A DNA stretch of 5,141 nucleotides from a virus, in the IMG/VR virus record IMGVR_UViG_3300029698_000123, positions 1-5,141 of that record. One strand, 5' to 3'. Each line of letters starts with the position of its first letter. Positions within the stretch are counted from its first letter, which is position 1. Positions 1 through 5,141 of this stretch are shown here, one piece after another. The position numbers and the translations under genes were made by a program. The notes under the pieces were generated by a model. That model made no database searches. It saw nothing but the letters and a program-made list of their open reading frames with translations, and had not been told where the DNA came from.

Positions 1-1
1 A

Positions 2-385
2 GAAACAATTGAAAATAAGAAAAATTTAGCAGAATCAACGCAAAATCGTTCAATTCGGTGGATATCGCATCCCCTTAGTGATGACCTTGCTCAAAAGTTC
101 TCCGTTTCTATCCATACCGAAGAACAAAAAATGTCTTATGTTACTAATGTCTTCGGTCACCGGATTATTGATATTCTGCTTTATCGTCCTGAGTTGCTTT
201 TCCTTGCTTGTTGCAAGTGGGAGCTGTTCTATAATGAACGTCTTCCGTTCTCCCCTCTGGCTCTGACACAGGAAGTCGCGCAGTTCTCGGAATCTTCCCG
301 CATTGCCTTTGAGGAATTTAAAGAAGTCGCTGATGACCCCTCTCCCTTTAGTGAAGTCGGGTTTGATGATATATTTTTATTCTGA
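2..385 (+). CDS. 5'-truncated ORF, probably the C-terminal part of the replication protein (or a gene-X-like product from the internal ATG at 131)
   Basis: Frame 2 is open from the window edge to TGA 383-385. Third codon positions are T/C-biased like the other phage genes. It lies directly upstream of the ssDNA-binding gene, where gII/gX sit in Ff phages. It shares an in-frame 12-nt repeat (His-Pro-Leu-Ser) with the Rep ORF at 5084-5095. Confidence 0.55.
   Translation, partial: ETIENKKNLAESTQNRSIRWISHPLSDDLAQKFSVSIHTEEQKMSYVTNVFGHRIIDILLYRPELLFLACCKWELFYNERLPFSPLALTQEVAQFSESSRIAFEEFKEVADDPSPFSEVGFDDIFLF
67..78 (+). repeat. Left copy of the 12-nt direct repeat gcatccccttag (candidate att core / recombination junction)
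   Basis: Identical 12-mer at 5084-5095. Both copies are in the same reading phase (cat ccc ctt ag) of the ORFs that contain them. Confidence 0.5.
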
Positions 386-403
386 TTAAAGGATGGTTGT
401 TTT

Positions 404-646
404 ATGAAAGCTACTGTAGTTGGTAAGTCCCGCCGCGCTGGCACATCTAAGCAGGGCAAAGACTATGATTTTACTACTCTAATGGTCGAGTATTTCATGC
501 GTGCAAACGATGACAATGAGGGTGTGCAGGTTGATAGAATCAATGTTGACGCTCGTATGATGACGTATGCGCTTATTGTCGTCGGCGCTACGTATGACTT
601 CGACTTTGACCGCAACGGATATCTTCTCGGAATTGAGGAAGTTTAA
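404..646 (+). CDS. Gene-V-like single-stranded DNA-binding protein (80 aa)
   Basis: AAAGGA Shine-Dalgarno (SD) at 388-393, about 10 nt before the ATG. Its size matches Ff gVp (87 aa). The segment RAGTSKQGKDY resembles RSGVSRQGKPY of the M13 gVp DNA-binding hairpin. Its position immediately after the rep/gX-like ORF is syntenic with Ff phages. Confidence 0.7.
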   Translation: MKATVVGKSRRAGTSKQGKDYDFTTLMVEYFMRANDDNEGVQVDRINVDARMMTYALIVVGATYDFDFDRNGYLLGIEEV

Positions 647-682
647 CTTTCTTTTTTCAAACTCAATTTCATTTCCTATGGT

Positions 683-700
683 AGAGCGGTTCGCCGCTCT
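683..700 (+). promoter_or_regulatory. Perfect 7-bp hairpin with a UUCG tetraloop, 5 nt upstream of the tRNA
   Basis: agagcgg-ttcg-ccgctct. No T-tract follows, so it is not a classical terminator. It may be an RNA processing or stability element, or an ssDNA structure. Confidence 0.45.
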
Positions 701-705
701 CACAT

Positions 706-779
706 GGCGGGGTGGTGCAATGGTAGCATGTCACTCTCTGAAGGTGAAGCTGCTGGTTCGAATCCAGACCCCGCAACCA
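706..779 (+). tRNA. tRNA-Gln, anticodon CUG, with encoded CCA
   Basis: A 74-nt cloverleaf drawn by hand. Acceptor 706-712/769-775 has 6 bp plus a G1.A72 mismatch. U8 is at 713. D arm is gtgc-aatggta-gcat, with A14, G18, G19 and A21. Anticodon arm is tcact-ctctgaa-ggtga, with U33, CUG and A37. The variable loop is agct. T arm is gctgg-ttcgaat-ccaga, with the TTC motif, G53-C61 and a G49.A65 mismatch. The discriminator is A776 and CCA is 777-779. Confidence 0.8.
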
Positions 780-826
780 TTTCGGATTGACCTCCGTTAT
801 TTGATGTCGCGAAAGGTGGTGGCGAA

Positions 827-1996
827 GTGAAGAAAAAGCCGCGGTGCTTATTGAAGCGCTTCGCCGCCCTTGTCGCGGCTCTGGTCATTTGTGCGGCTCT
901 GTGTGTTCCTTGTTTTGCTTCTAATAATTGGCCGTTTTCACCTGTTGCTAATGATTTTCTTTCTCATCCTAATTGTTGGTATGTTTGGCAACCTAAATCA
1001 ATTTCTGGTTTTTCTGGTTTTGAGTTGATTTGTCAGCCTATGTTTGAGGAAGGTTCTTCTAATACCCCTGATAATTCTTTTCCTTCTTATTCTACTAATT
1101 CGAATACTTATAGTTATACTAATGTGTCGGGTGTAACTCGTACTTTGATGTATTCTTTCCCTTATATTCCATGTTCTCCTCAGGCTGGTTATTGGTCTGA
1201 TTTGCCCTCTTTTCCTGTTGGTCAACCATCTGCTTATTGTTCTTGTGTCCGCATTTATCCTTGTACTTCTTATGGGTCTTTAAGCGGTATTTCTGACGTT
1301 TTTTCCGATCGTTCTATTTATGGGTTTTTAACTTCTTGGCGTTCTTCCGATTCATCTTCTATTTCTGATTATTATGACAATGAAATCTTAGATTATCTTC
1401 CGCTTTATGTTCCCTCTAATGCTTTCTTTTTTGGCGAGCGTACTTCTTCTTCTTCGTCTTCTTCTGGCTTTGTTATTTGTAATGGTGATAATAATTTTTG
1501 GGCTACTCCGTCTAACGAGAAATTTTTAGGTATTCGGCTTTCTCATTTTGGTTTTTTCAAATCTTTTCCCACTTCCTTTTCTATTCCATCTTCTGAGCTT
1601 GGTTTTGTTTTTTGTAAGCAGCCTTCTGGTACTCCTGAGTATTATAATTCTGTCTTTGATGCTTCTTTGAAATTCGCTGCTTCTCTTTGGGTTCCTGAAT
1701 CTCTGCTTCCTTCCGACGTTCGTGTTGGTGATTGGATTTCTAAATCTGATGTTGAATCGCTTCAAGATCAGCTCGTCAAAGATTTTGGTGTCACTTCCGA
1801 TACTTTGAAAAAATCCGAAGATAACTTGAATTCATGGGGTTCTACTTCTTCTGTTGATTCTGATGTTGCATCGACTTCTATTTCGGCACTCAACGCCTTG
1901 TTTCAGAACCTTGGCGGGTTTCTTTTCGTCGTTTCCCTTATGGTTTTCGGTGCCGTTGTGCTCCGTATGTTTATACGAAAGGCGGTTGACGGATGA
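827..1996 (+). CDS. pIII-like minor coat / host-adsorption protein (389 aa), secreted and C-terminally anchored
   Basis: GTG start, 10 nt after the AAAGG of SD GAAAGGTGG (811-819). N-terminal signal peptide MKKKPRCLLKRFAALVAALVICAALCVPCFA/SNN. The body is Ser-, Pro- and Cys-rich, with a poly-Ser linker. The C-terminal hydrophobic anchor GGFLFVVSLMVFGAVVLRMFIRKAVDG is followed by basic residues, as in Ff pIII. The product call rests on architecture only. Confidence 0.6.
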   Translation: MKKKPRCLLKRFAALVAALVICAALCVPCFASNNWPFSPVANDFLSHPNCWYVWQPKSISGFSGFELICQPMFEEGSSNTPDNSFPSYSTNSNTYSYTNVSGVTRTLMYSFPYIPCSPQAGYWSDLPSFPVGQPSAYCSCVRIYPCTSYGSLSGISDVFSDRSIYGFLTSWRSSDSSSISDYYDNEILDYLPLYVPSNAFFFGERTSSSSSSSGFVICNGDNNFWATPSNEKFLGIRLSHFGFFKSFPTSFSIPSSELGFVFCKQPSGTPEYYNSVFDASLKFAASLWVPESLLPSDVRVGDWISKSDVESLQDQLVKDFGVTSDTLKKSEDNLNSWGSTSSVDSDVASTSISALNALFQNLGGFLFVVSLMVFGAVVLRMFIRKAVDG

Positions 1997-2124
1997 CTTT
2001 TATTAACTTCTTCAAACAGGTCTTCGGTCTTTTTGGCTCCGGTGGCGCTCTCGTCATTGCCGTTGTCGTTTTTCTTGTCGGTCTTGGTATTTATAAGTTC
2101 GTAAAGGATTGGTTGCCATGGTAG
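1993..2124 (+). CDS. Small single-pass membrane protein (43 aa), virion or minor coat candidate
   Basis: Not in the ORF track because it is too short. The ATG overlaps the upstream TGA (ATGA). SD GAAAGG lies at 1977-1982, 10 nt upstream. Sequence is MTFINFFKQVFGLFGSGGALVIAVVVFLVGLGIYKFVKDWLPW. Third codon positions are T/C-rich. Confidence 0.55.
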   Translation: MTFINFFKQVFGLFGSGGALVIAVVVFLVGLGIYKFVKDWLPW

Positions 2125-2285
2125 ACTTTGTTTCCGCTCTTGGCGTTTTTACCTCGTTTATCGCCAATGTGCTTTCTATTTCCTTTTTTGGCTTCGGTAC
2201 TTTTGGCAATTTTATTTTGGTTTGTCTTCTGCTTTCGCTTGTTGGTTTTGTTCTTCGTGGCCTTTGGGATGGAGGTGATAAATAA
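2118..2285 (+). CDS. Small hydrophobic membrane protein (55 aa, probably two TM segments)
   Basis: The ATG lies inside the upstream stop context (ATGGTAG). AAAGG lies at 2103-2107, 10 nt upstream. Sequence is MVDFVSALGVFTSFIANVLSISFFGFGTFGNFILVCLLLSLVGFVLRGLWDGGDK. The TAATG overlap couples it to the next gene. Confidence 0.55.
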   Translation: MVDFVSALGVFTSFIANVLSISFFGFGTFGNFILVCLLLSLVGFVLRGLWDGGDK

Positions 2286-2896
2286 TGGAAGTCCCTACTA
2301 TCATTAAAACTTGGATTGATTCTGATGGCGTGACTGTCTATACGGTTCAGTATGAAGACGGTCGTACCTGTGATATGACTGTTCAGCAGTATGATTATCT
2401 CAAAGCATCTGCTCAGGCTGTTGCCGATTTAGATGCTAAAGGTTCTGCTGAATCTCAGCCGGAAGAAACTCCTGCTCCCTCTGAGCCTGCGCAGAACATT
2501 ACCGAAAGTCCTGACCTCCGCGAAGACTATGTGCCGCAGGAAGATGAGTTGCCGTTTGAAGGGAGTTTAACCGCTTATGATGACCGCGCCGCAGATACTC
2601 CAGCTTTGTATGCTAATCTCCCTGCTGTCTCTAATAGTTTCACTGCTATTATGGATTGGTTTGGTGATACGTTTTTCATCGAACGCTCTGAGACGGTGCA
2701 CAAGTCCGGCTATACGTCTGAAAGGTACTCCTATAATAGTTCGACTCAACTTATTCAGCTTCCTTTTGAGGAGGATACCACTACTACAACTCAGGTTCTC
2801 AACCCGCAAGCTTGCGTTTCTGCTTTGCTTGTTGTCCTTGTCTTCGTTACTACTGTTACTTGGATTAAAAACGCGATTTGGGGGCGCATGAGTTAA
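2285..2896 (+). CDS. Acidic protein with a C-terminal transmembrane anchor (203 aa), function unknown
   Basis: Strong SD GGAGGTGA at 2271-2278. TAATG overlaps occur at both ends. Amino-acid composition is diverse and non-repetitive. It has a Pro/Glu-rich linker and the C-terminal TM ACVSALLVVLVFVTTVTWI followed by KNAIWGR. No signal peptide is apparent. Confidence 0.7.
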   Translation: MEVPTIIKTWIDSDGVTVYTVQYEDGRTCDMTVQQYDYLKASAQAVADLDAKGSAESQPEETPAPSEPAQNITESPDLREDYVPQEDELPFEGSLTAYDDRAADTPALYANLPAVSNSFTAIMDWFGDTFFIERSETVHKSGYTSERYSYNSSTQLIQLPFEEDTTTTTQVLNPQACVSALLVVLVFVTTVTWIKNAIWGRMS

Positions 2897-3009
2897 TGGA
2901 AATTCTTCCTTTTCAGTATTGTTTCGGAATCTTCTCTGTTCCCGAAATTGGTTATTTCATTATTTTCGCTGCTGTTTTTTCTATGTTGGTCCTCCTGTTC
3001 CGTTCGTGA
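2896..3009 (+). CDS. Small membrane protein (37 aa)
   Basis: Start is coupled by TAATG to the upstream gene. Sequence is MEILPFQYCFGIFSVPEIGYFIIFAAVFSMLVLLFRS. Third positions are T/C-rich. It is similar in size to Ff pVII/pIX. Confidence 0.5.
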   Translation: MEILPFQYCFGIFSVPEIGYFIIFAAVFSMLVLLFRS

Positions 3010-3107
3010 CAGGTGACATAAATATCTTTATGAAAGGATGATGACTTCAGGCCGCTACATCTATTCTCGCAACGCTGCTTTCCTTGGTCGGTGAGTTCTT
3101 TACATCG

Positions 3108-3236
3108 ATGGTTACTTGGATGGGTCAGCTCATTGATTTTTATGAGTCCGAGCCTATTCTTCTCGTCTTTGTTATTCTCACTATCGCGGGCATCGTTCTC
3201 CGTATTCTTCGCCGCTGGATTCCCGGTCGTAGTTAA
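3108..3236 (+). CDS. Major coat protein candidate, Pf3-like and leaderless (42 aa)
   Basis: Sequence MVTWMGQLIDFYESEPILLVFVILTIAGIVLRILRRWIPGRS has an acidic N-terminus, one TM helix and a basic C-terminus, which is the classic inovirus coat layout. A strong terminator follows directly, as after gene VIII in Ff. The start is uncertain because the SD is weak; see the finding on 3010-3107. Confidence 0.5.
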   Translation: MVTWMGQLIDFYESEPILLVFVILTIAGIVLRILRRWIPGRS

Positions 3237-3243
3237 ATGCTGA

Positions 3244-3292
3244 GAGAAAACGCCGCCGACCATTTTGATGGTCGGCGACGTTTTCTCGTTTT
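3244..3292 (+). terminator. Long hairpin, Rho-independent terminator-like element between the coat and assembly genes
   Basis: Arms 3244-3263 and 3268-3287 pair at 19 of 20 positions (one C.A mismatch), with loop tttg. The core is GC-rich. The T-rich run ttttctcgtttt covers the 3' end of the stem and the bases after it. An A-run in the 5' arm makes the element look bidirectional. Confidence 0.65.
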
Positions 3293-3934
3293 ATGAAAGG
3301 ATTATATGCTATGCTTTATGGTATTCTTGTCTTTTGTATTTGCTGGCTTTTTGTATATATCGATAATTATTGCAAAAACCCCTATAAATTGGAAGCTGTT
3401 GTTGGTTCAAAAGGCTCTGGCAAATCTCTGTATATGTCTCGCGTTGCTGATAAGTGGCTTCGTTCTAACAAGGGGCTTATCTATTCTAATATGGGTATTG
3501 GTTATGAATTAGAGCCTGAATACTGGAAACAGACCTTTCTTCCTGATTCTCTTATTCTTATCGATGAAATTGGCGTGCTTCATTCCAACCGCGACTTCAA
3601 AACTATGCCCCGTGAAGCAGTTGAGTTTTTCAAGATGCAGCGCAAATATCACCTGACTATTATTGTATCGTCTCAGACCATGGACTTTGACAAAAAGATT
3701 CGTGACCTTTGCGACCGCATCTACCTTTGTAACCGTATTGGCTGGTTCTGTCGTCTCACTCCCTATCGCTCCTGCATTGCTATGGAACATCGCCCCGAGG
3801 GAGGTCAAGAACTGGTTAACACTGTGCGGAAGGCAGGTAGGGCTAAGTGGTATACCATCCCTAAGTCCGTGAAGCAGGTAAGTGCCTTAGAATACGATAC
3901 AGAGCAGGTTATTAGCAAGACCCCCTCTAAATAA
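3293..3934 (+). CDS. pI / Zot-like phage assembly ATPase (213 aa, or 207 aa from ATG 3311)
   Basis: Walker A GSKGSGKS at 3404-3427. Walker B LILIDE at 3551-3568. LILIDEIGVLHSNRDF and FFKMQRKYHLTIIVSSQ parallel M13 pI LLVLDECGTWFNTRSW and FLHARKLGWDIIFLVQD. An N-terminal hydrophobic helix is present. ATG 3311 has the genome-typical AAAGG SD exactly 10 nt upstream, so it may be the true start. Confidence 0.85.
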   Translation: MKGLYAMLYGILVFCICWLFVYIDNYCKNPYKLEAVVGSKGSGKSLYMSRVADKWLRSNKGLIYSNMGIGYELEPEYWKQTFLPDSLILIDEIGVLHSNRDFKTMPREAVEFFKMQRKYHLTIIVSSQTMDFDKKIRDLCDRIYLCNRIGWFCRLTPYRSCIAMEHRPEGGQELVNTVRKAGRAKWYTIPKSVKQVSALEYDTEQVISKTPSK

Positions 3935-3940
3935 AAACTT

Positions 3941-3980
3941 CCCCCCGTGCCCTTTAGGGTCAGGGGGGTTGTTTTTATTT
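3941..3980 (+). terminator. Rho-independent terminator after the assembly gene
   Basis: cccccc...gggggg stem (3941-3968) with an internal loop and an inner ccct/aggg stem, followed by ttgtttttattt. Confidence 0.6.
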
Positions 3981-4164
3981 ACTATTAGTTTTTTTAATAC
4001 ACTTTTTCCTGCATTTGCCGGCATTTTTGCAGGCAGTAGCTTCGTTTAGTCACGCGATAGCGTCTCCACCGCGTCCCCCGTCCCCGCAAGGGCAAAGCCC
4101 TTGCCCTTCCTAAACAGGCTTTTATGGGGTTTCGATACGTAGTGACTGCCGTGACGGCGGGGGC
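3981..4164 (+). other. Structured non-coding intergenic region, candidate replication origin, packaging signal or attP
   Basis: No credible ORF. Direct repeat gcattt at 4011-4016 and 4021-4026, flanking the palindrome tgccggca (4016-4023). Perfect hairpin gcaagggc-aaa-gcccttgc at 4086-4104. Long-range inverted repeat 4066-4082 / 4153-4169 (14 Watson-Crick pairs plus 1 GU out of 17). It is much more GC-rich than the rest of the phage. Its position between the assembly gene and rep matches the Ff intergenic region. Confidence 0.5.
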
Positions 4165-4206
4165 GGTGGGCGTTCGTGTAATACGCCCACCTTTTTTTGA
4201 TTTTTT
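4165..4206 (+). terminator. Rho-independent terminator immediately upstream of the rep promoter
   Basis: Stem ggtgggcgt (4165-4173) pairs with acgcccacc (4183-4191) around a 9-nt loop, followed by tttttttgatttttt. Confidence 0.65.
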
Positions 4207-4207
4207 C

Positions 4208-4236
4208 TTGACAGCTCCTTCATATTGTGGTAACAT
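4208..4236 (+). promoter_or_regulatory. Sigma70-type promoter for rep
   Basis: TTGACA at 4208-4213, a 17-nt spacer, an extended -10 TGG at 4228-4230, and TAACAT at 4231-4236. The predicted transcription start is near 4243, 26 nt before the rep ATG. Confidence 0.6.
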
Positions 4237-4268
4237 TTAACCATGGAAATGAAAGGTGGTTTTCTCAC

Positions 4269-5141
4269 ATGAAAACGGTTGTTAAGCTTGATTATGCTAC
4301 GTTTGTTTTTGAGCAAGGTTCGATTTCTATTTCCATGATCGAAGATGCGCTTGCTCAGTGCGATTTACATTTTTCGCAGATTTCTAACGCAAGTGAGAAT
4401 TCTCCCTACAATTCCCCTGCGGGTCTTTTCTATAAGCCGAACAACGGCGCGAAACAGTCTCCGCACTCTCTCCAAGTTTCTGGTCATGGTTGTGAGCTTT
4501 TCCGTTCCACCTTGCCGCGTCTTGCGTCACTGATGGAAGGTCACGAATTCGGTCACTTTTCCCGTCTTGATTTTTGTTTCGATGTTGTTATGACTAAAGA
4601 ACGTTGGCGCGAGTTCTATTTGGGTGTTATTTCTGCTTCTGTCGATGAAATGAATTACCCTGAAAAAGCCCGTAAGGTTCGTAAAGTCATGTATCAGGGC
4701 TATGGCGATTCTACTACAGTCTATATCGGTCGTAGAGCGTCTTCTGCGGTCTTCTGCCGTATCTATAATAAGTCCCTGCAAGACCCTGAAGAAAAGCTTT
4801 GTGTGGCTTCTGGTGAGTTTCTGGACTGCCCTGATGATTCCTATATCATTCGTTATGAGATGGAATTGAAATTTACTTCTCGAGTTCGTTCTGGTTCTCG
4901 TACTGTCTATGACCCGTCTCCGCTTTTCTGGTTTTACTACGAAGACCCTGAGAAGCTTTTCACCTATCTTCGTAAAGTTTGGAATCGTTACGGAAATGAA
5001 ACTCTTCTTCCCGATGGCTGGGACGATATGCAGTTCGTGACCGATATGGTAGCCCGTGGCATTCATTACACTGATGACTTTTGGCATCCCCTTAGCGGCG
5101 CGGAAAAAGCCCGCCGCGCAAGGGCTTGCGGACGCGGCGGG
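4269..5141 (+). CDS. Rolling-circle replication initiator, Rep_trans family (pT181 RepC / CTXphi RstA-like); 3' end not in the window, or disrupted after 5095
   Basis: I translated this by hand and found no stop from ATG 4269 to the window end (291 codons). SD AAAGGTGG lies at 4252-4259. Motifs typical of the family are LDYATFVF, LQVSGHGCELF, SRLDFCFD, TVYIGRRASSAVFCRIYNK and IIRYEMELKF. It is absent from the ORF track only because it lacks a stop codon. The track ORF 4527-5087(-) is its antisense shadow. Confidence 0.85.
   Translation, partial: MKTVVKLDYATFVFEQGSISISMIEDALAQCDLHFSQISNASENSPYNSPAGLFYKPNNGAKQSPHSLQVSGHGCELFRSTLPRLASLMEGHEFGHFSRLDFCFDVVMTKERWREFYLGVISASVDEMNYPEKARKVRKVMYQGYGDSTTVYIGRRASSAVFCRIYNKSLQDPEEKLCVASGEFLDCPDDSYIIRYEMELKFTSRVRSGSRTVYDPSPLFWFYYEDPEKLFTYLRKVWNRYGNETLLPDGWDDMQFVTDMVARGIHYTDDFWHPLSGAEKARRARACGRGG
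5084..5095 (+). repeat. Right copy of the 12-nt direct repeat gcatccccttag
   Basis: Identical to 67-78 and in the same codon phase within the Rep ORF. Composition switches to GC-rich immediately afterwards. Confidence 0.5.
5096..5141 (+). repeat. GC-rich palindromic element with two mutually exclusive hairpins, related to the intergenic GC island
   Basis: A 9-bp stem joins cccgccgcg (5110-5118) and cgcggcggg (5133-5141). An alternative stem joins 5095-5103 and 5110-5117. It shares cgcaagggc (5117-5125 vs 4085-4093) and gacg(c)ggcggg (5131-5141 vs 4153-4161) with the intergenic region. It is cut by the window edge. Confidence 0.5.

Follow-up and report, generated by a model that had tools for sequence, protein, structure and literature searches.

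The locus

IMG/VR record IMGVR_UViG_3300029698_000123 is a viral sequence of 5,141 nucleotides (nt; positions 1 to 5,141, here called the window) in which a complete tRNA gene with the anticodon CUG is found among the genes of a small inovirus. The tRNA lies at 706-779 on the plus strand, has a G1xA72 mismatch followed by the pairs G2:C71 and C3:G70, and ends in A73 and an encoded CCA. Directly 3' of it is a gene for a 389-residue secreted, membrane-anchored protein (g3-like; 827-1996, plus strand), and further downstream on the same strand a gene for a coat-like protein of 62 residues (3048-3236) is found that has no canonical start codon. The codon CAG occupies the start-codon position of this gene (3048-3050, plus strand), and the proposal developed below is that it is a private start codon for which the phage tRNA is the initiator.

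The window sequence is an exact substring of two long metagenomic chromosomal contigs of 75 kb and 51 kb, L289 (positions 7175-12315) and L290, which were found via the encoded 389-residue protein; L-numbers are the labels given in this analysis to the genomes and contigs of relatives. On both contigs the prophage is surrounded by cellular genes (SLH-domain proteins, HSP20, an MFS transporter, GDPD), whose products have identical counterparts in Oscillibacter sp. ER4 and in genome bins of Oscillospiraceae. The window is an inovirus prophage integrated in an Oscillibacter sp. ER4-like chromosome of the human gut. Comparison with the two contigs, together with the identity of the flanking proteins, places host DNA at 1-66 (about 66 nt) on the left of the prophage and at 5099-5141 (about 43 nt) on the right. 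Assignment to the inoviruses (Tubulavirales) follows from a Zot/pI ATPase, a Rep_trans initiator, small coat-like membrane proteins, genes on one strand and a size of about 5 kb, and the nearest GenBank entries come from pig faeces, as circular genomes labelled 'Inovirus sp.'. An earlier note, made from the letters of the window alone, had described the sequence as a filamentous phage of roughly 5 kb; the small inovirus stands, but the window is not a free genome, as the chromosomal contigs show a prophage with host DNA at its ends.

Structure and conservation of the tRNA

The ARAGORN search that the earlier note had proposed calls one tRNA in the window, at 706-779 on the plus strand with the anticodon CTG at 738-740, and the Rfam model RF00005 scores 49.5 bits over 706-776 against a gathering threshold of 29 (E = 1e-8). 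This call and a score above threshold confirm the note's description of a complete tRNA with the anticodon CUG, and the U8, A14, G18G19, U33, A37, TTCGAAT T-loop and encoded CCA which it had listed can all be read in the sequence. Only two non-standard pairs are marked in the Rfam alignment, 1:72 (GxA) and 49:65 (GxA), and these are the mismatches that had been noticed before.

A search of other small inoviruses, likewise suggested by the note, found tRNAs in related inoviruses from GenBank, IMG/VR and metagenomes. A tRNA(CUG) is present at the same place, directly before the large g3-like gene, in seven of eight related GenBank genomes and likewise in 33 of 37 IMG/VR relatives (Zot 93-99% identical), the four without it being short partial contigs; circular relatives carry it as well, and the order of tRNA and then g3-like gene is common to all tRNA-bearing relatives. 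From these genomes 34 distinct tRNA sequences were recovered, and covariation was analysed on 32 distinct variants. In these, 91.7% of the cloverleaf cells are paired as compared to 77.8% in shuffles, and two-sided changes are seen at 13 pairs; the observed values were reached by none of 500 shuffles and slid controls were also far below them. Covariation is found in all four stems, and every pair of the anticodon stem co-varies while the anticodon C-U-G is fixed. The tRNA is conserved in relatives with co-varying stems, which bears out the earlier suggestion that it is under selection.

The position immediately 5' of the tRNA (position -1; 705, plus strand) is an invariant T in the alignment and in every listed flank. 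Bacterial RNase P prefers U at this position. Further upstream is a G+C-rich hairpin with a UUCG loop (683-700, plus strand) which ends 5 nt before the tRNA, and the sequence AGAGCGG-TTCG-CCGCTCT given for it in the note is read there. Among the window, L001-L004, L018, L027 and L028 two G+C-rich tetraloop hairpins that are unrelated in sequence (GAGCGG-TTCG-CCGCTC and GGCCGC-TTCT-GCGGCC) end 3-5 nt before the tRNA, and in other relatives an A+T-rich, promoter-like flank is found in place of a hairpin. The type of flank correlates with whether position 1 of the tRNA is G or C. Recombination appears to have made a mosaic of the tRNA region, since tRNA identity spans 70-100% where that of Zot spans 93-99%. 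In the tRNAs of L015, L024 and L025 a change of G9 to A occurs together with a change of A21 to C in the D loop, and this may be a tertiary co-variation.

The acceptor end

The 1:72 pair is absent from all 32 distinct phage variants, position 1 being always G or C facing A72. G is found there in 26 variants and C in 7. The pairs G2:C71 and C3:G70 are unchanged in the 32 variants, and A73 and the CCA are invariant. A different picture is seen in cellular genomes. When 185,579 species genomes were scanned for tRNA-Gln(CUG) of the same architecture (anticodon CTG), 121 chromosomal genes were obtained from Oscillospiraceae, other Clostridia, Verrucomicrobia, Kiritimatiellia and Lentisphaerae, and U1-A72 is found in all 121; the scan pattern itself required the D arm, the anticodon and the G70-C71-A72-A73-CCA end, so that likeness in these parts is partly by construction. 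In tailed-phage tRNA-Gln genes with the same D arm 1:72 is paired in 73 of 78. A broad D-arm pattern scan of IMG/VR gave mostly ordinary tailed-phage tRNAs and was used as a control only. The pairing in cellular and tailed-phage genes shows that the 1:72 mismatch is specific to the inovirus tRNA.

An unpaired 1:72 together with G2:C71, C3:G70 and A73 makes up the acceptor end by which methionyl-tRNA formyltransferase recognises the initiator tRNAs of bacteria, and G2:C71 and C3:G70 are given as formyltransferase determinants in PMC6393288. In the earlier note the 1:72 mismatch had been mentioned as a hallmark of initiators in an aside only; with 32 of 32 phage variants unpaired and 121 of 121 cellular genes paired, it proves to be the key feature. 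Variants with C1 agree fully with the E. coli initiator tRNA in acceptor stem, discriminator A73 and CCA. In all 5426 E. coli genomes a tRNA-Met gene gives the best match over the full length, at a median of four places in each genome, and the one match that was inspected sits in the metZWV cluster. The acceptor stem might be taken as proof of descent from an initiator tRNA, but such descent is no more than a candidate, as G2:C71, C3:G70 and A73 are found in the host family's tRNA-Gln(CUG) too. The phage tRNA is 74% identical to the E. coli initiator and about 70% identical to the cellular tRNA-Gln(CUG), from which it differs at position 1. Judged by its sequence, the tRNA appears to have a body like that of the tRNA-Gln(CUG) of the host family in which position 1 has been altered so that it does not pair with A72.

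Unpaired 1:72 positions were also observed in tRNAs of tailed-phage contigs. These include a tRNA(CUU) of the 32-kb contig L139 with G1xA72 and a GCAACCA end, a tRNA(CAU) of L101 with C1xA72 and lacking the three G-C pairs of the initiator anticodon stem, and tRNA-Gln(UUG) with U1xU72 in L058, L069, L074, L119 and L126. Private start codons might exist outside the inoviruses.

A coat-like gene with CAG at the start position

Genes of the window are all preceded by AAAGG (once GGAGG) and 9-12 nt, mostly 10, before an ATG or GTG. The coat-like gene has the same kind of ribosome binding site (RBS), AAAGGA at 3033-3038 (plus strand), and the AAAGG-N10 arrangement seen at 827, 1993, 2118 and 3311 places CAG 3048-3050 exactly where a start codon is expected. 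Two in-frame TGA stops (3039-3044, plus strand) come directly before the CAG. Two nearby ATGs, at 3038 and 3041, do not share its frame and are only 0-2 nt from the RBS. The CAG is conserved in 42 of 42 clade genomes, each of which has an in-frame stop one or two codons upstream, and diversity is zero at all three of its bases among 40 distinct sequences. The first canonical in-frame codon, a TTG at codon 12 or 13, is not conserved, and in at least 10 genomes a CAG is found there.

After the CAG the 42 clade genomes differ by indels that are multiples of three. Over codons 2-13 the ratio of synonymous to non-synonymous single-base differences is 942:614 in frame, as compared to 453:858 and 1:1339 in the other two frames, and nucleotide diversity is 0.243, 0.070 and 0.307 at the three codon positions. 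Codons 2-13 evolve as coding sequence, and the coding signature of the gene begins at codon 2.

A single hydrophobic helix and a basic C-terminus (RILRRWIPGRS) characterise the 62-residue product, and the gene lies just before a terminator hairpin and zot. Size, composition and gene position suggest that it is the major coat protein. Searches of PHROG and Pfam with this protein found no family, and it is the sole exception among the window proteins, which match clade-specific PHROG families of small inoviruses. Automatic gene callers miss the gene on the chromosomal contigs, where a gap of 415 nt is left (L289:10070-10485; window 3010-3290), and it is probable that inovirus annotations systematically overlook genes that begin with a private start codon.

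A mini open reading frame, ATG-AAA-GGA-TGA (3030-3041), overlaps the RBS in the same frame as the CAG gene; its start is TTG or AAG in relatives and it is probably non-functional. Recoding or read-through of TGA from this mini open reading frame was considered and rejected, since TGA terminates several full-length phage genes and the mini open reading frame start is not kept. All three stop codons, TGA, TAA and TAG, still terminate genes of the phage.

Relatives that lack the tRNA provide a comparison. In Bajarodino viruses 60 and 79 and Dulem virus 75 a homologous gene is found in the same place (with an end such as ...IVRRWLPGRA), and it has an RBS followed by ATG or GTG. Several dozen further tRNA-less relatives with a coat-like gene were found in IMG/VR and metagenomes, and nearly all of them have an ATG or GTG start, the exceptions being partial contigs.

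Anticodon and start-position codon in distant relatives

Distant relatives were found by a Zot-profile scan of IMG/VR and metagenomes; scans of IMG/VR for close relatives of L299 and L005 gave almost nothing. In the distant tRNA(CUG) lineages L005, L006/L007 and the prophage L340 the coat-like gene also has AAAGG-N10-CAG. Other inoviruses of the human gut each have one tRNA before the g3-like gene with a common xGCGGG...CCCGCA end and with differing anticodons. Position 1 of the tRNAs from the Zot scan is G or C opposite A72, a weakly paired U, or U opposite C72.

Wherever the sequence of such a genome includes the coat region, the anticodon is exactly complementary to the codon found at the normal distance of 7-8 nt from GGAGG. 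This codon belongs to the coat gene, or to the second of two paralogs in genomes that have both, and there the first paralog starts with ATG at equal spacing. The anticodon CUA is found with UAG at the start position (L299, L341), UGU with ACA (L342, L343, L344, L364), UUG with CAA (L347, L351), CUG with CAG (L348, L350, L340, L005-7), AGU with ACU (L349, L355, L357, L359 and L008, from pig) and CUC with GAG (L354, L362, L365). The chance that one pre-defined codon matches is 1 in 64 per lineage, and six independent classes all match. No canonical start is present between the upstream stop and the special codon in L342-344, L355 and L357. Several of the tRNAs have a common anticodon stem (CAAGA/UCUUG) and different anticodon loops, which indicates that the anticodon has switched within one tRNA lineage and that the start codon has switched alongside. 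Some of these tRNAs have A34, or a pyrimidine at position 37. Both are odd for elongator tRNAs.

Several relatives depart from this simple pattern in detail. The pig inovirus MT135290 (L008) has a weak tRNA (29.3 bits; 4588-4657) that is irregular in its T stem and acceptor region and has G1xA72 and the anticodon AGU; the coat gene of this virus has ACT at AAAGG-N10 (1546-1565) and also an in-frame ATG two codons upstream. This lineage may be reverting to ATG while its tRNA decays. The 91-kb chromosomal contig L364 has two tRNAs about 4.8 kb apart, with the anticodons UGU (3968-4042) and CUC (8823-8897), and the coat gene near the first starts with ACA; two adjacent inovirus prophages may be present. 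ACG, CAA or CAG is found at the coat start of partial contigs in which no tRNA is detectable (L363:1035-1060, L353:766-790, L295, L296). In L345 the tRNA has the anticodon CGU and the coat region is off the contig; together with the ACG at a coat start, this predicts an ACG/CGU pair.

A proposed private start codon

The structure and conservation of the tRNA, the loss of its 1:72 pair and the match between anticodon and start codon, with canonical starts in tRNA-less relatives, are the observations on which an interpretation can be built. On comparison of sequences, 706-779 is probably a phage-encoded tRNA of the initiator type that serves the private CAG start codon of the coat-like gene. By extension it seems fairly likely that a group of inoviruses from human and animal guts has reassigned the start of the coat gene to a private CAG, CAA, UAG, ACA, ACU or GAG, each phage having its own co-evolving initiator-type tRNA (1:72 unpaired or weak, G2:C71, C3:G70). 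This would be a natural system of orthogonal initiation of which the tRNA and CAG of the window are one member.

The mechanism that can be envisaged begins with transcription of the tRNA as part of the phage operon. RNase P would cut at the 5' end of the tRNA, after which the conserved upstream hairpin may stabilise the upstream mRNA. Charging would be by way of the anticodon and, because this is CUG, most likely with glutamine, and the determinants of the acceptor end suggest that the charged tRNA would then be formylated. A precedent is given by an initiator tRNA with the anticodon CUA, which is charged by GlnRS, formylated and able to initiate at UAG (PMC6393288). Initiation factor 2 (IF2) would deliver the formylated tRNA to the ribosomal P site, where it would pair with CAG 3048-3050 and start the 62-residue coat-like protein. 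Pairing of CAG with the host initiator would fail at two positions, and the host initiator should therefore not start there, so that the gene would depend on the phage tRNA. Such an arrangement might be of use in coupling coat synthesis to the phage programme, in keeping the prophage silent, in giving the protein a non-methionine or blocked N-terminus, or in insulating the phage from competitors.

The YUG anticodon expected of an elongator tRNA-Gln is present in the tRNA (CUG), and U1-A72 is not. Of initiator features, it lacks a Watson-Crick 1:72 pair, has G2:C71 and C3:G70 and has an anticodon that pairs with the codon at the start site, but this anticodon is not the CAU that reads AUG, GUG and UUG. 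Several further points weigh against the interpretation, for which the case is wholly comparative and computational. The three G-C pairs of the initiator anticodon stem (29:41, 30:40, 31:39) are absent, these positions being A:U, C:G and U:G in the window and freely variable in relatives, and an E. coli initiator without them is formylated but initiates only when it is over-expressed or when the host initiator is lowered (PMC6393288). The D stem has U11:A24, the elongator type, in all 32 variants, as opposed to the A11:U24 of initiators. A few relatives have a weak U1-A72 pair instead of a mismatch. The GatCAB route of charging, on which the host might depend in place of GlnRS, relies on U1-A72. 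In addition, an in-frame NTG is found upstream of the special codon in some relatives, with ATG-CAG in L350, TTG-CAG in L348, TTG-TAG in L299 and L341, and a GTG three codons before the CAG in L005, L006 and L340. Considered on their own, these genomes would allow the special codon to be a sense codon near the beginning of the reading frame, although the spacing from the RBS to the upstream ATG, TTG or GTG is shorter than normal.

The readings that compete with an initiator role have to account for the same body of evidence. One, which the earlier note had put forward as codon supplementation, is that the phage carries an elongator tRNA-Gln(CUG) of the ordinary kind as cargo, so that CAG is decoded better in phage genes, and the anticodon, a body about 70% identical to that of the cellular tRNA-Gln(CUG) of Oscillospiraceae and a CAG:CAA ratio of 32:9 in phage genes are all in agreement with it; moreover, an unformylated tRNA with a 1x72 mismatch still elongates to some extent (PMC6393288). 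The codon count that the note had recommended speaks against supplementation, however, as CAG is not rare in the host: the ratio is 71:4 in the host genes flanking the prophage, and a tRNA-Gln(CUG) is among the host family's own tRNAs, which leaves no shortage in elongation to be made up. An elongator would also leave unexplained the universal 1x72 mismatch where 121 of 121 cellular genes are paired, the CAG at a start position behind upstream stops, and the relatives which read UAG, or have A34 or C37, and yet always match the codon at the start site. This reading is accordingly regarded as improbable. Equally, it is hardly to be expected that translation starts elsewhere and that the tRNA serves as an elongator at an early 'gate' codon, reached from the out-of-frame ATG at 3038 or 3041 by a +1 frameshift or from an upstream NTG in the relatives. 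Such a start is suggested by the ATG ATG found 7-10 nt before the CAG in the window and by the NTG that directly precedes the special codon in L299, L341, L348, L350, L364 and L347. The window ATGs lie 0-2 nt from the RBS and do not share the frame of the CAG, the bases in between are variable (ACT, TTT, CTT, ACA) with no conserved slippery site, and neither the window clade nor L342-344, L355 and L357 have any in-frame start. The usual spacing of 7-8 or 10 nt fits the special codon and not the NTG, and sense codons could be passed by the host without a phage tRNA.

Two further readings would give the tRNA a role outside decoding at the start site. It could be a structural signal, either as 'punctuation' at which RNase P and RNase Z cut the mRNA between the ssb-like and the structural genes or, as the earlier note had also suggested, as a folded single-stranded DNA element that primes minus-strand synthesis. 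The tRNA is embedded in the operon and has no promoter of its own in the window, and the stable hairpin that precedes it by 3-5 nt in two unrelated versions would shield the upstream mRNA after cleavage by RNase P. A signal of this kind needs neither an anticodon that is fixed or that tracks the start codon nor a 1x72 mismatch nor an encoded CCA, and the priming proposal in particular leaves the invariant anticodon and the co-varying stems unexplained. As the sole explanation a structural signal is very improbable, and a structural role may instead come on top of another function. Some phages are known to carry tRNAs that stand in for host tRNAs after cleavage, and the tRNA might by analogy be a decoy or replacement against a host anticodon nuclease that targets tRNA-Gln. 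No nuclease context was found, the anticodon loop CUCUGAA is that of cellular tRNA-Gln and would be cleavable too, and a match to the start codon over six anticodon classes would be left without explanation, so that this idea is scarcely credible. An initiator-type tRNA for a private start codon is the reading preferred here.

Other features of the prophage

The replication initiator gene rep is divided in the prophage. Its N-terminal part (Rep_trans type; 4269-5098, plus strand) runs up to the right copy of a 12-bp core of the attachment (att) site, GCATCCCCTTAG, at 5087-5098 (plus strand), and a C-terminal piece that is cut off by integration (131-385, plus strand; phrog_27843 positions 295-378 of 378, E = 8e-50) follows the left copy of this direct repeat at 67-78 (plus strand). 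The N-terminal 277 residues and the C-terminal 84 residues match one PHROG profile, yet they are apart and out of frame. In circular relatives the repeat GCATCCCCTTAG is present in a single copy inside an intact rep, and from this and the two copies within rep in the window it follows that the phage integrates through a site within rep. In the lysogen the core splits rep into parts of 291/294 and 84 residues, and the gene is whole again only upon excision. No integrase is encoded by the phage. A circular genome, in which the joined window ends would break rep by a frame-shifting 121-nt 'insertion' between the 12-bp repeats, was considered and is ruled out by the chromosomal contigs. With the att core inside rep at 67-78 and 5087-5098, and the tRNA about 630 nt inside the prophage and complete in circular genomes, the attP is not derived from the tRNA, and the earlier view of the tRNA as cargo and not as the remnant of an integration site is upheld.

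All genes of the window are on the plus strand, the tRNA sharing their strand as the earlier note had stated. The same note had placed the tRNA between an ssDNA-binding gene and an adsorption gene; its neighbours are phage genes, but both functional labels are weakly supported. The upstream neighbour encodes an 80-residue protein like those that bind single-stranded DNA (404-646, plus strand; AAAGG-N11-ATG), with a weak match to an RstB-type PHROG, and the g3-like gene downstream starts at AAAGG-N10-GTG. Behind the coat-like gene lies the hairpin of an intrinsic terminator (3254-3277, plus strand), followed by the gene for the Zot/pI-type assembly ATPase (3311-3934, plus strand; AAAGG-N10-ATG). 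The sole strong sigma-70-like promoter, TTGACA-17-TAACAT, precedes rep at 4208-4236 (plus strand). Once the genome is circular, transcription from it would run through rep, the ssb-like gene and the tRNA into the structural genes.

G+C-rich palindromes that contain GCAAGGGC are present in the intergenic (origin) region of the phage at 4060-4200 and, repeatedly, in host DNA just right of the att site (5099-5141, L289). The motif TAGCGGTTTGGTAGCG occurs twice in host DNA right of the att site.

Comparison with known systems

To our knowledge, bacterial translation always begins with one initiator tRNA, which has the anticodon CAU and reads AUG, GUG and UUG, and initiator tRNAs with other anticodons are known to us only as laboratory constructs. 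The literature was searched in full text for tRNAs of inoviruses, for CAG or other private start codons in nature and for natural non-CAU initiators, and engineered systems alone were returned, including amber-initiator tRNAs and a designed scheme for the biocontainment of phages. Within the literature searched, a natural phage initiator tRNA for a reassigned start codon is so far undescribed.

If the proposal is true, it would add a new form of viral control over a structural gene, in which coat protein is made only with the phage's own tRNA, and would imply proteins whose first residue is not methionine. The six codon/anticodon pairs in related phages would mean that the identity of a start codon can evolve. 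The absence of the coat-like gene from automatic annotation and from PHROGs would be explained. These phages would also offer compact, ready-made parts for orthogonal initiation in Firmicutes, and the role of the three G-C pairs in the selection of initiators could be tested on natural variants that lack them.

The closest natural counterpart is the bacterial initiator tRNA-fMet (E. coli metZWV/metY), which likewise has no Watson-Crick pair at 1:72 and has G2:C71, C3:G70, G4:C69, A73 and CCA; it has the same CU-NNN-AA anticodon loop, and use in the P site at a start codon would be common to both. The phage tRNA differs from it in having CUG and not CAU, in lacking the three G-C pairs, and in having U11:A24 and not A11:U24. 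It also has a compact D arm and a 4-nt variable loop, and it comes from a virus, where it seems to be dedicated to one gene. Engineered initiators, that is the amber i-tRNA with the anticodon CUA and later orthogonal ones, are alike in combining an initiator-type acceptor end with a non-CAU anticodon so that a chosen gene is started at a non-AUG codon. The engineered amber initiator is charged according to its anticodon (with glutamine, by GlnRS) and formylated (PMC6393288), and its CUA/UAG pair is also that of L299 and L341. These constructs were made in the laboratory and contain the three G-C pairs, whereas the phage tRNA occurs in nature without these pairs and evolves together with the start codon of a coat gene.

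The cellular tRNA-Gln(CUG) of Oscillospiraceae, Verrucomicrobia, Kiritimatiellia and Lentisphaerae shares with the phage tRNA a length of 74 nt, the D arm GUGY-AAYGGUA-RCAC, the 4-nt variable loop, G2:C71, C3:G70, A73, an encoded CCA and the anticodon loop CUCUGAA or CUCUGAC. The difference is at 1:72, where U1-A72 is present in all 121 cellular genes and in none of the 32 distinct phage variants. The tRNAs of large tailed phages are also encoded by viruses, and a compact D arm is common in phage tRNAs. Those tRNAs are carried as cargo for codon usage or against host defence, whereas here a single-stranded DNA phage of 5 kb has one tRNA with an initiator-type end and an anticodon that is tied to one start site and not to codon usage as a whole. 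In the suppressor tRNAs of stop-recoded gut phages, as in the inovirus system proposed here, one codon is reread in order to control late or structural genes, and L299 and L341 carry the anticodon CUA; in the inoviruses, by contrast, the reread codon is located at the site of initiation and not within the genes.

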